DNA of 37,100 nt, taken from Xuanwuvirus P884B11. Position numbers and translations under genes: made by a program. This document shows positions 1 through 36,046 of this stretch, piece after piece; within the stretch, counting starts at the first letter, position 1, and each line of letters begins with the position of its first letter. The notes beneath the pieces were generated by a model. The model saw nothing but the letters and a program-made list of their open reading frames with translations. It was not told where the DNA came from and made no database searches. The stretch is taken from sequence record NC_049391.1; one strand, 5' to 3'.

Positions 1-401
1 TGCCCTTCCAGCCCGCGTGGCGGCTGGATCCGTCAAGGATCCGTGCGTGCACAAAAAAACGCGCTTTTTCTGCGCGCAGGTGACGGGGGGACAGGTTTCA
101 GGGGGTAAATAGCATCCCCTGAACGATGTCGCAGCAACACAACAGAATGGCTGTATTTCTCACGCTGAGCGTGAAAAAGACGTGAGGGCTTTTGATTTGA
201 TGGGGTGAAAGGTAAGGCCGTCAAAATCGCACTGAGGCGGCGAGAACATGCAGTTAACGCGGTGGGATTGCGTAAGAATCAGACCGTCGATGATGGCAAT
301 AAGCAGGAAAGCGTCGTGAAATTATCTGACTGATACAGGAGCTGGAGAGTCGGGGCATAAATTTTTTATGCCCCGGCGAAGCAGCAGACAAGCGAAGCGC
401 G

Positions 402-27071: not shown

Positions 27072-28076
27072 TTAATCCCCCGTGGACACTGCGTGGACAC
27101 TTACGCCACCTTTCAGCGGATTAAGGGCCACCGCATCCTGCAGGTAATCCGGTGCAAAATGCGCATATGCCATTGTTTGCTGAATGGTTGCGTGACCAAG
27201 AATCTTCTGAAGCGCAATAATGTTTCCTCCGTTCATCACAAAATGGCTGGCGAACGTATGCCGCAGCACATGTGCAGCCTGGCCTTTTGGTAAATCGGGC
27301 TTAACTCTTTTCAGTGCCAGGCAGAATTCCCGGTACTTCACCTCAAACAAGCCGCCTGTTTCTCTGGTTTTGATCGCCTCACAAACTGCCTGCGAAATTG
27401 GCACTGTTCTCTTCCGGCCATTTTTGGTTTCAAGAAACGTTACACGGTTATGAACTATCTGTTCACCACGAAGCTTACAAGCTTCACTCCAGCGCGCCCC
27501 TGTGCTTAAACACAAAAGCGCAACACGCCAGTAGTCGCCCTCCAGTGTATCGAGCAATAGCGCCACTTCCTTCTGTGACAGGAACGCCATTTCTCGTGGA
27601 GATACATAAAGAATAGAAATTCCCCTTACTGGATGTTCTGCATCCCAAAGACCTATTTTTTTCAGCACGGTAAACATTCCGGATAACCGATTCATGTACC
27701 TGTTAGCAGATGACGGTTTCAATCCTTCAGCTATCTTTTGAGAACGCCACGCGATAATTTTCAGCTTATCAAGATCCACAGCCTGCATATCAGCGCCAAG
27801 CTCATTGATTATGTTGCGCAGTTGTTTTCGGTCTTCTTCCGCCTTACGCCTGTGCTGGCCGTGATACATCCACCACAACTCAAGCAAATCATTTAGCGTT
27901 CGACGATCACGGTAGCCCTGTATATATTCCCGCTTTTCAGCGTTCGCCATGATGTAGCGTTCAGTGGCCACCGCTACCGATTTTTTGTCAAATACCTTAC
28001 GCACGCGCTTTCCCTTGCGTCCGTTCGGCCTGATGTCCAGCAAATAACGACCATCTTCGAGCTTCTTAATCGACAT
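27072..28076 (-). CDS. int: Tyrosine integrase, P2 Int family
   Basis: Start at MSIKKLEDGRY (P2 Int begins MAIKKLDDGRY); C-terminal ARWSEA...HVLRHTFASH...LGHATIQQTMAYAH catalytic motifs (R, H-x-x-R, Y). Confidence 0.9.
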   Translation of the reverse strand: MSIKKLEDGRYLLDIRPNGRKGKRVRKVFDKKSVAVATERYIMANAEKREYIQGYRDRRTLNDLLELWWMYHGQHRRKAEEDRKQLRNIINELGADMQAVDLDKLKIIAWRSQKIAEGLKPSSANRYMNRLSGMFTVLKKIGLWDAEHPVRGISILYVSPREMAFLSQKEVALLLDTLEGDYWRVALLCLSTGARWSEACKLRGEQIVHNRVTFLETKNGRKRTVPISQAVCEAIKTRETGGLFEVKYREFCLALKRVKPDLPKGQAAHVLRHTFASHFVMNGGNIIALQKILGHATIQQTMAYAHFAPDYLQDAVALNPLKGGVSVHAVSTGD

Positions 28077-28172
28077 TACGAAGCCCTCCAATGAACCGCT
28101 CTACAATTTCTCCAGCCTCTTTCCAGCAATAATCAGACCAGACAAAAAGCAGGTCTAACCAGTTTTCTGGCC

Positions 28173-28493
28173 TCAGCGGGATAATTTTTGGATTGTTTCG
28201 GTTGAAACGCGATCTCCCTCCGAATTGCAGGAACCATCAAGAGAGAGAGCCGGAGAAATTTGCCCGACCTCCGGCATCGTTTCATCTGTTGATAACCAAT
28301 AAGCATACTTCTTAAATTTAGGGTGTTTCGTAACCTTAAGTAAGGCACCCTCTGTTACTTGCTTCCCCCTCACCTCATAGTTAGTTACCGTCCCATAAGG
28401 CAGCCCAACACAATCCGCAAACTCCTGGCGGGTCATACCTTCTGCTTCACGAATCAGGCGAAATTTTTCACCCATGCTTGACAAAGATGCCAT
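28173..28493 (-). CDS. C: Immunity repressor, P2 C-like
   Basis: HTH (MTRQEFADCVGLPYGTVTNYE) and QISPAL region resemble P2 C; start among several in-frame Met codons (28493 chosen; track gives 28547). Confidence 0.75.
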   Translation of the reverse strand: MASLSSMGEKFRLIREAEGMTRQEFADCVGLPYGTVTNYEVRGKQVTEGALLKVTKHPKFKKYAYWLSTDETMPEVGQISPALSLDGSCNSEGDRVSTETIQKLSR

Positions 28494-28606: not shown

Positions 28607-28894
28607 ATGAGCGAATCAGAGCTTGGGGGGTTCATTCAGGTAGCACCATATCCACTTGAAGCGGTGCCATATCAACTATTCGCCAAGATGATCGGCCGCA
28701 AGGAATCCACAGTCAGAACCATGATTGACGCAGCAAAGCTACCGACAATTGACTTTGTGAAACCAGGTTCAGTAAAGACGCGTGCATCAGAAAACTGGGT
28801 ATATCTGCCAGCATTTAACGAAGGCATGCGCAAAGCGTTTTTTGAGCAACCGAAAGAACGCCGCGACGCATGGTTGTTGTGGCTGGGACTTTAG
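28607..28894 (+). CDS. cox: Cox-like excisionase / lytic-switch regulator
   Basis: 95 aa; PYQLFAKMIG...WVYLPA...WLLWLGL resembles P2 Cox (PYQEFAKLIG...WVYLPA...WLMWLGL); GGGAG RBS. Confidence 0.8.
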   Translation: MSESELGGFIQVAPYPLEAVPYQLFAKMIGRKESTVRTMIDAAKLPTIDFVKPGSVKTRASENWVYLPAFNEGMRKAFFEQPKERRDAWLLWLGL

Positions 28895-30894: not shown

Positions 30895-31190
30895 GCGCCA
30901 TCAACCACCAGGAATTACGCGAACTGGCGACTGACCTGCAACGAATGGCAACGCCTCAAAAATTACTGGCGTTTCGCGCAATGCTCTCGCCGTCTGCTGT
31001 GCTGGCGCTGCTGGATGAGCTGGAGCACGCCAGAACCACACCTCTCGCCATTCGCCTGACGCTCCGTCATGAAATCGAGGATTTCTGCGCGACGTTGGAG
31101 GCGCCAGGCGAACCGGAAACGCCGGAAGCAATACAGCAAGAGCTGCTGCAACGCATTGACAAGGTTTTTGATTTTTTTCTGAACCACTAA
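30891..31190 (+). CDS. Hypothetical early protein
   Basis: 99-aa ORF, overlapping start with the previous gene. Confidence 0.45.
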   Translation: MSAINHQELRELATDLQRMATPQKLLAFRAMLSPSAVLALLDELEHARTTPLAIRLTLRHEIEDFCATLEAPGEPETPEAIQQELLQRIDKVFDFFLNH

Positions 31191-31512
31191 GAAACCAGAA
31201 CATGCACACACAAAAAAACCGCTTGCCATGCCGCAATCAGTCAGGTTACATTTCCGCTGCACCTCACAAAACGGGTGCCGGGTTTCGCAGCCTGCTGACT
31301 ACACAAGCGCACAACCGCGCCAGCGGTTTTTTTGTGCGTACTGTATTGCCACGTTTTTTTCGCGTCAGAATTATGGCGGGGCGTACGGGGCCGACTTCGG
31401 TCGGGCCGGGTTCTTGTGTAGCCGGTACTGCGAACCTCGTACGTCTCGCCACCCACAGTTTCGCAGCTCTGGATGGTGAGTTTTCACAACTTACTACACA
31501 AGGGGCCACACC

Positions 31513-31743
31513 ATGGCAAACCGCAAACCACACCGCGCTATCGCGGAGCGTCGTCACATCCAGACTGAAATCAACCGCAGACTTTCCCGCGCATCACGCG
31601 TCGCGCAAATCATGCACATCAATATGCTGCATGAGCGCAGCCACGCACTATCAAACATTTATTCCGCCTCTGTTTTCAGCTATCTGGCGGATGATCTGCA
31701 CGAGCTTCAACAGCTCATCCAGCAGCAAAACAAACTCCATTAA
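31513..31743 (+). CDS. Hypothetical early protein
   Basis: 76-aa ORF after a 320-bp non-coding gap; the track's 31202-31819 ORF in another frame looks spurious. Confidence 0.4.
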   Translation: MANRKPHRAIAERRHIQTEINRRLSRASRVAQIMHINMLHERSHALSNIYSASVFSYLADDLHELQQLIQQQNKLH

Positions 31744-31815
31744 CTCCTGTTCCGGGCCTTTCCTGCACCTTGCGGCGGGAGGCCTTCGCACATCTGTAAC
31801 AAGAGGATTGCCGCA

Positions 31816-32181
31816 ATGATTCTCGCCAACGACTTTCTTGAATACCTGCTCAACACAGAACGTGATCTTGCCGCTCGCGTGCGTGATCGTTATGACATGT
31901 ACCTGAAATCCCTGCCTGTACCGCAGCTCGCTGACGGAAAGATTGTTATTGATGGTCGCTACATGATTGACAGCCACGAGGGAAATTACAGGCTTTACCG
32001 CATTGAAGGTGGCACCCCGTCCGTTATTGGCATTTACCAGCGCCCATCCTCTGCAATCGTCGATGTGATTGCCGACAGCATCCGCATCACACATCGCCAT
32101 GCCGACACAGAAGACACCGTGCTGGAAATTCAGCGGCTGGCTACAGTCTGCCGCGACACCCTGAATGGCATGACGAAGTAA
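31816..32181 (+). CDS. Hypothetical early protein
   Basis: 121-aa ORF immediately upstream of A. Confidence 0.45.
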   Translation: MILANDFLEYLLNTERDLAARVRDRYDMYLKSLPVPQLADGKIVIDGRYMIDSHEGNYRLYRIEGGTPSVIGIYQRPSSAIVDVIADSIRITHRHADTEDTVLEIQRLATVCRDTLNGMTK

Positions 32182-35086: not shown

Positions 35087-36046
35087 ATGAAAATTTGTAT
35101 CGACGACGGCTCCACCAACATCAAGCTGGCATGGACTGAGAACGGCGAACGCCGCAACGCCATCAGCCCGAACAGCTTCAAGTCGGAATGGTCTGCGCCG
35201 TTCGGTGGCACGCAGCCCGCGAACTACATGCTTGATGGCGTGCGCTATGGTTTTGATCCGGTCAGCGATCGCTTTGTCCAGACGACCGACACGCAATACC
35301 AGTACAGCGATGTGAATATAATTGCCATTCATCACGCGCTGGTCAAATCAGGCATCACACCACAGGAAGTGGATGTGGTTGTCACCCTGCCACTAAGCGA
35401 GTATTTCGATACAAACGCACAGCCGGACATGGCCAACATCAACCGCAAAAAAGCGAACGTCATGCGCCCGGTGGAGTACCAGAACGGCGAAGCATTCACT
35501 ATCCGTAACGTACGGGTTATGCCTGAATCCATTCCGGCTGGCTTTAAGGCACTGGCTGACATGAGTCCGTTTGAATCCCTGCTGATTGTGGATTTGGGCG
35601 GAACCACGCTGGATGTGGCAAAGGTTCAGGGGCAACTGGCAGGTATCAGCCAGGTGTTTTGCGATCCACACGTGGGCGTTTCTCTGATGGCCGATGCCGT
35701 ACTGTCGGTGATGGCCACTAACGGTATGCGCACCAGTCACCACATCGCCAATACCATTATCGAACATCGCCATGATGAAGCCTGGCTGCGCCAGCACATC
35801 CACAATGACGCGCATTACGCCAGCCTGATGGCGGTAATTCGTGAAAAGGAAGAAACACTGAAACAACGCGTGATCCGCGCGCTGGCGGGTTTTTCGGGTT
35901 ACGGGCGGGTGATGGTTGTCGGTGGAGGGGCGGAGATTGTGGCACCCGCTATCCGCGAAGCCTGCGGAGTTAATGCGACTTTCATCGCGGACGGGGTGCC
36001 ACAGTTTGCTCTGGTTAATGGGCTGTACGCAATGGACAAGGAGTAA
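35087..36046 (+). CDS. parM: Actin-like segregation ATPase ParM (StbA) family
   Basis: 319 aa; N-terminus DDGSTNIKLAW, ISPNSFK, YSDVNIIAIHHAL, VMPESIPAG, LIVDLGGTTLD, VVGGGAE track plasmid R1 ParM almost motif for motif as I recall it. Confidence 0.85.
   Translation: MKICIDDGSTNIKLAWTENGERRNAISPNSFKSEWSAPFGGTQPANYMLDGVRYGFDPVSDRFVQTTDTQYQYSDVNIIAIHHALVKSGITPQEVDVVVTLPLSEYFDTNAQPDMANINRKKANVMRPVEYQNGEAFTIRNVRVMPESIPAGFKALADMSPFESLLIVDLGGTTLDVAKVQGQLAGISQVFCDPHVGVSLMADAVLSVMATNGMRTSHHIANTIIEHRHDEAWLRQHIHNDAHYASLMAVIREKEETLKQRVIRALAGFSGYGRVMVVGGGAEIVAPAIREACGVNATFIADGVPQFALVNGLYAMDKE

Follow-up and report, generated by a model that had tools for sequence, protein, structure and literature searches.

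Xuanwuvirus P884B11 (sequence record NC_049391.1) was analysed here as one stretch of 37,100 nucleotides (nt), to which we refer as the window. The element is a P88-like prophage (Peduoviridae, Xuanwuvirus; P2 family), in which a P2-type switch is followed by a rightward early operon. Within this operon, a gap extends from the stop of a 99-residue Ead/Ea22-like open reading frame (ORF; 31190) to the ATG of a 76-residue ORF (31513), and an earlier note, made from the sequence letters, had described it as apparently non-coding and highly structured. In this gap we find members of two RNA families, a covarying scheme of base pairing, promoter-like and terminator motifs and a target site that overlaps the ribosome-binding site (RBS) of the gene that follows, with an epsilon-like gene and a replication gene downstream. 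The gap is very probably an antisense-RNA immunity module of the type known from P4 and P1, lying mid-operon among the early genes of a P88-like prophage.

Results

Two Rfam RNA families in the gap

A scan of the whole window with Rfam at the curated thresholds (50 bits for RF01394, 45 bits for RF01695) returned exactly two matches above threshold, both on the plus strand and both inside the gap (Table 1). The upstream match is an IsrK/seqA-like leader RNA that holds, in this order, a first hairpin, a second hairpin with the site b1 in its loop, the site a1 and an intrinsic terminator with a run of seven T (T7), and it thus combines the features of the isrK/seqA type: a match to the model, two 5' hairpins and a Rho-independent terminator. 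The earlier note had placed a terminator-like hairpin with such a run at 31311-31335, correctly as the stem and T-run coordinates show, and its suggestion of a small RNA or attenuator agrees with two Rfam RNA genes of which the first ends in an intrinsic terminator; nothing points to the protein-binding site that it had also considered.

The start predicted for an internal sigma-70-like promoter, at ~31259, is the first base of the IsrK model. The 36-nt block that comprises this promoter and its leader (31223-31258) is identical in 108 IMG/VR contigs, a sample that was collected by this exact pattern, and the arrangement of -10 element, 6 nt and RNA start is, by eye, common to P88, phiSM, five lambdoid phages, PhiR46_1 and P4. 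The equivalent position in P4 is that of the promoter PLE.

The downstream match covers the C4 model over its full length (1-87 of 87) and starts after a spacer of 35 nt. Its architecture consists of a closing stem of 17 base pairs (bp) around the hairpin CCGAC-TTCG-GTCGG and a second hairpin, GCCGG-loop-CCGGT. The first of these is the TTCG hairpin of the earlier note (GGCCGAC at 31389-95, TTCG at 31396-99, GTCGGGCC at 31400-07), which is indeed present, although the position assigned to it, 31396-31418, starts at the loop and lies some 7-11 nt too far to the right. The minimum-energy fold of the C4 stretch is the structure of the model (-47.7 kcal/mol, z = -4.46), and 0 of 200 shuffles are as stable.

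Several other signals were considered for this region. The site TTGCCA-17 nt-AATTAT at 31346-31374 was rejected as a C4 promoter because its predicted start falls inside the C4 closing stem and its -35 element is not conserved (TCGCCA in P88); its -10 element is the conserved AAUUAU leader of C4. The c4-a1b1 model (RF03163) stays below threshold at 31246-31298 (20.9 bits versus 46.7), which is a difference between models and not a lack of a1/b1, as the isrK model covers the stretch. Weak Rfam matches to STnc410, anti-hemB and a trypanosome snoRNA are at chance level. No LexA box was seen by eye near the module (CTGT at 31340-43 has no matching ACAG), and a tRNA/tmRNA scan of the whole window found none.

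A 21-nt inverted repeat, 90% complementary, links 31206-31226, just 5' of the internal -35 element, with 31319-31339, the 3' half of the IsrK terminator and its U-run, and its CACAAAAAAACCGC part is kept in nearly all P88-like contigs. Since the upstream arm is present only on transcripts from the upstream early promoter (Pe), the repeat may, speculatively, act as a Pe-specific anti-terminator.

The repeat is a duplicated antisense target

The earlier note had also noticed a two-part repeat. Its first part, GTTTCGCAGC, occurs at 31282-91 and 31458-67 and nowhere else in the 37.1-kb window (expected count 0.19; two copies are reached in 2 of 100 shuffles), while the second, CTACACAAG, occurs at 31299-307 and 31494-502 and, inverted, a third time at 31413-21 (three copies versus 0.14 expected; 0 of 100 shuffles reach three). 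The direct copies are thus as described, but inverted copies had been missed: CTTGTGTAG (31413-21) and CTGCGAA (31428-34) sit between the direct copies and are found nowhere else in the window. Because they are complementary to both direct copies, the repeat is not a repeat per se but the duplicated target (a1/b1 and a2/b2) of the intervening antisense RNA, whose second hairpin presents the loop a' and whose single-stranded segment b' follows. The downstream copy a2 extends into the Shine-Dalgarno sequence GGGG (31502-05), 8-11 nt 5' of the ATG at 31513, and in all 10 relatives it abuts the Shine-Dalgarno sequence of the next gene.

Table 1. Positions of the module, its pairing sites and the surrounding genes in the window
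Feature	Position	Strand	Details
Integrase	27072-28091	-	part of the P2-type switch
P2-C-family repressor	28173-28493	-	37% identical to P2 C, E = 3e-23
Cox	28607-28894		part of the P2-type switch
Through-module ORF, 205 codons	31202-31819	+	position of P4 eta; overlaps Pfam 'Ash'
Internal sigma-70-like promoter (predicted)	31223-31252	+	TTGCCA-18 nt-TACATT
IsrK/seqA-like leader small RNA	31259-31333	+	Rfam RF01394, 64.1 bits versus 50, E = 1.2e-11
b1, upstream target of b'	31284-31290	+	TTCGCAG; loop of IsrK hairpin 2; 7/7 pairs with 31428-34
a1, upstream target of a'	31299-31307	+	CTACACAAG; 9/9 pairs with 31413-21
Intrinsic terminator	31313-31333	+	AACCGC-GCCA-GCGGTT (31313-31328), T7 at 31327-33
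C4/CI-type antisense RNA	31369-31456	+	Rfam RF01695, 83.2 bits versus 45, E = 4.3e-15
a', antisense loop of C4 hairpin 2	31413-31421	+	CTTGTGTAG
b', single-stranded antisense segment	31428-31434	+	CTGCGAA; between hairpin 2 and closing stem
b2, downstream target of b'	31460-31466	+	TTCGCAG; 100% paired across types; 4/7 pairs changed on both sides
Segment TGGTGAG	31474-31480	+	copies the 5' strand of the C4 closing stem
a2, downstream target of a'	31494-31504	+	CTACACAAG (31494-502) and two G-U pairs
Epsilon-like gene, 76 residues	31513-31743	+	Pfam PF25738 'Derepression', 32.5 bits versus cut-off 27
orf121, 121 residues	31816-32181	+	distal cargo of the transcription unit
Replication gene A (gpA), 940 residues	32188-35010	+	Phage_GPA, 436 bits

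The segment at 31474-31480 can pair with the 3' strand of C4 (31445-51) into an alternative hairpin with b2 in its loop. All 10 family members have such a hairpin, located +16 to +27 after C4, and where lineages differ in it the changes compensate each other (CUCACCA/UGGUGAG; GCUACCACCA/UGGUGGUAGC; GCUAUCGCC/GGCGAUAGC), each case being weak on its own.

Antisense loops and both targets change together in relatives

A 651-bp query (31150-31800), which takes in the epsilon-like gene as well as the module, shares 99.7% identity with PhiR44_2, 92% with P88 and 84% with Citrobacter phage phiSM. A search with the epsilon-like protein alone gave only three close loci. Both Rfam models also match, with order and strand unchanged, in P88, phiSM, PhiR46_1, the lambdoid phages mEp460, ST64B, 1720a-02, Lys8385Vzw and Stx2a_1447, and in P4, where the seqA region matches isrK with 60.8 bits and the CI RNA matches C4 with 74.9 bits. 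The remark in the earlier note that P2 has nothing comparable is accurate for the complete genomes of P2 and 186, neither of which matches either model, but it overlooks P4, the satellite of P2, which carries a homologous module.

Across ten modules, the loop of hairpin 2 and the segment after it all differ, and in each module both target copies carry the fitting complement; in P4, for instance, CCTGTGAA faces TTCACAGG twice and TTCTCAC faces GTGAGAA twice. The P88-type loops are CTGTAGTTG and GTGGAAA, where the window has CTTGTGTAG and CTGCGAA. The P88-like sample (contigs L016 onward), aligned to positions 31259-31524 of the window, reduces from 108 contigs to 47 unique modules, among which 20 combinations of 13 a' types with 6 b' types occur. 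Pairing of a' with a1 is complete (9/9) in 46 of the 47 modules and pairing of a' with a2 reaches at least 8 of 9 positions in 46 of 47, while b' pairs with b1 and with b2 at 7 of 7 positions in every module. Non-cognate combinations reach a mean of 5.7 of 9 and 4.4 of 7 pairs.

Covariation in related phages, a check proposed in the earlier note, was counted formally on an alignment of 21 representatives, with 500 shuffles and with controls in which the partner was slid; it finds both target copies changing to match a' and b'. For the C4 stems together with a'-a1 and b'-b1, 99.8% of the cells are paired and 15 pairs have changed on both sides, a result that 0 of 500 shuffles reach and that compares with 35-44% in the slid controls. 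For a'-a2 and b'-b2, 97.9% are paired with 10 pairs changed on both sides (slid controls 36-49%), and the covariation score is 0.679 versus 0.13 in shuffles; none of the 500 shuffles reaches the observed value on four of five measures, and the fifth, the number of both-side changes, is reached by 34 of 500. Taken singly, the C4 stems are 100% paired in the 21 variants, with both-side changes at four stem pairs, half of them in the closing stem and half in the TTCG hairpin. Pairing across the types amounts to 100% for b1-b' (4/7 pairs changed on both sides), 98.9% for a1-a' (7/9) and 96.3% for a2-a' (6/9). These patterns of substitution are strong evolutionary evidence for pairing of the antisense RNA with each of the two copies and for diversifying selection on its specificity.

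The specificity region has the appearance of a hypervariable, recombining cassette on a constant scaffold, next to the identical promoter and leader block. One contig (L093:4605-4870, minus strand) carries a natural hybrid in which the a' loop CTGTAGTTG faces CAACCAAAG in both targets and forms 7 of 9 pairs; it is perhaps a recombinant of recent origin, or else an escape variant. Another (L099, ~272-310, plus strand) carries a C4 variant with a tandem extra hairpin 2, GCCGG-ATTCTTTGCTCT-CCGGT-GTTCTTGTGTAG-CCGGT, and hence two a' loops of unlike specificity in one RNA, of which a1 and a2 match the second only. The same combinatorial variability is seen in 74 IMG/VR contigs of P4-like satellites (L124-L197; sharing a common CI hairpin-1 sequence), with ~8 a' types, 4 b' types and matching seqA and seqC copies. 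No full combination of a' and b' is common to the P4-like satellite and P88-like sets in this sample.

An open frame runs through the module

The claim in the earlier note that the gap holds no convincing reading frame requires a distinction: an ORF of 205 codons does traverse it, but protein-level constraint is absent. The ORF starts 57 nt 5' of the IsrK start, upstream of the internal -35 element, continues across the two RNAs and, in another frame, into the epsilon-like gene, and ends in a TGA (31817-19) that overlaps the ATG of orf121 at 31816. It also holds the conserved AUG of the C4 leader (31373) in its frame. Its translation matches Pfam Phage_ASH (PF10554) with 26.5 bits (cut-off 26), and the matching residues 16-109 are exactly the RNA module.

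The upstream in-frame ATG is present in 74 of 74 unique P88-like sequences, and the conserved block begins with it on the left; in 71 of these sequences no stop interrupts the frame before it has passed the epsilon ATG. Variable sites are distributed over the three codon positions as 34/38/39, without periodicity. The synonymous fraction is 29.6% in this frame versus 21% and 25% in the other two, and 28.6%, 28.1% and 37% in the three frames when the a and b sites are left out; over the epsilon gene this frame has the lowest fraction, 19% versus 44% in the epsilon frame. An open stretch over the module alone is reached in 630 of 2000 dinucleotide shuffles. Phage_ASH does not behave here as a domain under amino-acid constraint, with neither codon periodicity nor a synonymous excess, and is best read as the translation of a conserved RNA module. 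A coding frame conserved in relatives, which the earlier note had named as counter-evidence to its reading, therefore exists only in the formal sense that the frame is open. In our reading, the frame appears to be kept open while its product is not conserved, which would fit the precedent of P4 eta. In the other families, the ATG of the lambdoid relatives lies at -360, follows a good Shine-Dalgarno sequence and is in frame with the anti-repressor, P4 has an ATG at -120 that gives 214 codons, and PhiR46_1 has no such ATG.

Genes downstream of the module

The epsilon-like protein shares 29% identity with P4 epsilon across 66 residues (E = 4e-9), and its gene has a coding signature, with a third-position bias of 39 versus 23 and 22, and with 44% synonymous changes. 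The repressor of the prophage is of the P2 C family, and P2 C is the known target class of P4 epsilon. A tblastn search of phage records with the epsilon-like protein found P88-like phages only, an NCBIfam search with this protein, orf121, Cox and the Ead-like protein gave no match, and orf121 has no similarity to P4 orf151 or orf106. From the gene order and the P4 precedent (epsilon...alpha), orf121 and gpA would also come under RNA control. The gpA protein, at 940 residues, compares with 761 residues in P2. Downstream of gpA, annotations of P88-like records place a ParM-type plasmid-segregation gene, and the window has a 319-residue ORF there (35087-36046).

Discussion

How might the module work? 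We draw on the literature on P4 and P1 (Citron and Schuster 1990; Sabbattini et al. 1995; Forti et al. 1999, 2002). Further sources are those on P1/P7 (PMC12197685, PMC8201110) and on P4 (PMC3632133, PMC4825925, PMC10111431). By analogy with these systems we infer RNA processing, early termination, a bypass by translation and a biological output in immunity and/or induction. The internal promoter would be on in the lysogen and begin a transcript at ~31259, the majority of transcripts ending at the T7 terminator as an RNA of ~75 nt that bears a1/b1. Read-through RNA would carry the C4/CI-like RNA, which may be excised and accumulate, with RNase P acting at its 5' end as for P1 C4 and P4 CI. Both a' and b' would then pair with a2 and b2 on the same kind of transcript, and, since a2 reaches the Shine-Dalgarno sequence of the epsilon-like gene, its translation would be blocked on pairing. 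Untranslated RNA would be ended early, as in P4 and P1, so that the epsilon-like anti-repressor, orf121 and gpA would remain silent in the lysogen. The upstream copy a1/b1 would be a competitor for a' and b', either in cis or, as part of the short RNA, in trans, and could in this way adjust the block or undo it, which is what the data on IsrK of Gifsy-1 suggest. Transcripts from Pe, by contrast, would carry the ATG at 31202, and translation through the module may keep the terminator and the targets inactive, as for P4 eta. The genomic context, an epsilon-family gene followed by gpA, fits C4 control of anti-repressor and replication genes. As its biological output, the module could provide either a second immunity, based on RNA, or a route to derepression that is gated.

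A number of observations weigh against this interpretation. The direction in which a1/b1 regulates differs between the P4 and Gifsy-1 literature, P4 genetics placing seqA in the termination mechanism whereas IsrK of Gifsy-1 activates in trans, and either direction could apply here. The through-module ORF is out of frame with the downstream gene, unlike P4 eta/kil, it is broken in 3 of the 74 sequences, and its length, reached by 63 of 2000 dinucleotide shuffles, is not significant when one sequence is taken by itself. The IsrK-like stretch alone is not unusually stable compared with shuffles (z = -0.4). Between this phage and P88 (L001), the epsilon-like proteins are 96% identical whereas the C repressors are only 32% identical, which makes it less than obvious that epsilon is an anti-repressor strictly matched to its own C; an action of epsilon on C would have to rely on some feature that the C family has conserved. 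Lastly, the internal promoter, the RNA processing and the termination are all predictions.

Does the short RNA, rather than C4, carry the regulation? The IsrK-like RNA might be the main regulator, an activator as in Gifsy-1, with the C4-like RNA being only a part of the mRNA or a by-product; the read-through mRNA would then be translationally silent, with a1/b1 paired to C4 in cis, until the short RNA opens it in trans. Indeed, in the fold predicted for the complete read-through transcript, a1/b1 and the C4 loops pair in cis (-106.6 kcal/mol, z = -3.1). In Gifsy-1, experiments established that IsrK activates and that translation starts at the AUG conserved in the C4 leader (PMC4825925), the equivalent of which is at 31373 here. 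However, a' and b' covary equally tightly with the copy at the RBS, for which an account by IsrK alone has no need, and the structure of C4 is kept with covariation at 83 bits, which likewise counts against it; C4/CI RNA is moreover the genetically defined repressor in P1, P7 and P4. We consider it quite improbable that the short RNA is the main regulator, even if activation by IsrK and antisense control by C4 are compatible and both may operate.

The conservation of the open frame in 71 of 74 relatives, with its ATG at the left edge of the module, the Phage_ASH match at threshold and the fact that P4 eta is a real translated gene (PMC10111431) could instead argue that the region encodes an Ash/Eta-like protein of 205 codons, to which the RNA structures are incidental. 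Against this, variation is spread evenly over the codon positions, is compensatory at the RNA level and gives a synonymous fraction not clearly above that of the other frames, and the lowest of all over the epsilon gene; the open frame is not significant in one sequence, and the Ash profile coincides exactly with the RNA module. We therefore rejected a protein-coding reading on the codon-position, synonymous and shuffle tests, and regard it as extremely unlikely. Even less credible is a plain attenuator or terminator in cis, or a protein-binding or origin-like site, that divides the early operon without any RNA acting in trans. A terminator-like hairpin with a T7 run does lie in mid-operon, and annotated terminators are also found inside the early operons of P2 and 186, but the internal promoter at a conserved distance and the Rfam matches are left unexplained, iterons or other repeats of the protein-site kind were not found, and the three-way covariation over 20 specificity combinations already contradicts a site that works in cis only.

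The kind of system is well known, and its mechanism is not new: both RNAs are curated Rfam families, and the module has been reported in P1/P7, N15, Gifsy-1, lambdoid prophages and phage-inducible chromosomal islands (PICIs; PMC3632133, PMC4825925, PMC10111431). Among the closest known systems is P4, whose immunity region has the order PLE - seqA - cI/CI RNA - seqC - kil/eta - epsilon - alpha. Shared with P4 are the same two Rfam families in the same order, an internal promoter equally far from the first RNA, target copies that flank the antisense RNA with the downstream one at the RBS of the first gene, an ORF that begins 5' of the internal promoter and traverses the module, and an epsilon-family gene and a replication gene downstream. 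In P4, the constitutive promoter lies inside eta, and full-length eta is translated only from the upstream promoter, its translation preventing termination (PMC10111431). The differences are considerable as well: the host here is a full P2-family phage whereas P4 is a satellite; the two RNAs are separated by 35 nt instead of 107 nt; epsilon follows the module directly, without a Bro-type kil/eta protein; the through-module ORF is out of frame with the downstream gene; orf121 is dissimilar to P4 orf151/orf106; and the replication gene encodes gpA, a rolling-circle nickase, whereas the primase-helicase alpha of P4 is absent.

The immI region of P1/P7 (c4 - icd - ant) likewise has a processed antisense RNA of family RF01695 with exposed a' and b'; its targets are a1/b1, upstream of it, and a2/b2, at the RBS of the first gene, which is small, and according to the literature an anti-repressor is controlled there. 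In P1/P7, c4 blocks the RBS of the ant mRNA (PMC12197685), and differences in specificity define heteroimmunity (PMC12197685, PMC8201110). Ant and Icd, however, are unrelated to the epsilon-like protein, and in P1 the module is a separate operon and not a segment of an early replication operon as here. In Gifsy-1 of Salmonella (isrK - orf45 (STnc1160) - anrP), an IsrK leader with a leaky terminator, a C4-like element and an anti-repressor gene follow one another as they do here. IsrK is a structural homologue of P4 seqA and STnc1160 is CI-like, the translated orf45 has as its first AUG the one that is conserved in the C4 leader, found at 31373 here, and the read-through RNA can fold a1/b1 onto C4 in both (PMC4825925). 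Unlike here, the Gifsy-1 host is lambdoid, the output is AnrP and then AntQ, and the short RNA activates; Hfq binding by isrK and the trans-activation of its own read-through mRNA come from Gifsy-1 experiments only (PMC4825925). The lambdoid prophages (mEp460, ST64B, SfV-like and Stx phages) and PICIs share the architecture and the three-way complementarity (PMC3632133, PMC10111431), but their modules lie within, and in frame with, the 5' extension of an ORF for a Rha/Bro-type anti-repressor, whereas the gene here is epsilon-like and out of frame.

We found no description of this particular member, which belongs to a P2-family phage of the helper type, separates the proximal early genes from the replication gene, would gate an epsilon homologue directly and has a through-module ORF that is out of frame with the downstream gene. 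The arrangement would divide the 'early operon' of P88-like phages into a part proximal to Pe and a distal, RNA-gated part with the anti-repressor and replication genes, and it ties the regulation of helper-type phages to the classic satellite P4 through the same RNA module and the same epsilon family. As a conjecture that we ourselves think rather unlikely, the RNA switch of P88-like helper-type phages may gate an epsilon-type anti-repressor against repressors of the P2 C family, their own or those of co-resident prophages, with the loops serving as immunity 'barcodes'. If so, P88-like phages would possess an RNA-controlled route to induction that P2 lacks. P2 is classically non-inducible. 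P88 has been recovered after mitomycin C treatment (PMC5285337). The hypervariable loops, of which at least 20 combinations are seen here and about as wide a spread among P4-like satellites, would in that case be shaped by conflict between helper and satellite, and helper and satellite RNAs with matching barcodes could silence each other's replication genes. The sample offers at least 20 natural antisense specificities that are orthogonal to one another while the scaffold hardly varies, and these may be of use in immunity studies and as orthogonal RNA regulators.

Finally, the 651-bp query matched in 1253 of 5426 complete E. coli genomes, and yet, very common as the module is, none of the RefSeq/GenBank records inspected has an RNA annotation at it; the stretch is left unannotated or is given hypothetical ORFs instead. 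In the P88 RefSeq record, gp13 is a hypothetical minus-strand ORF (L001:4056-4244, minus strand) that we take to be spurious because it overlies C4. In lambdoid phages, coding sequences annotated as antirepressor, Rha, peptidase or transcriptional regulator have a 5' extension of ~200 codons drawn through isrK and C4 (L005:2141-3292; L006:2147-3304; L008:2141-3286; L009:2146-3297). Both gp13 and these extended coding sequences are probable annotation artefacts.

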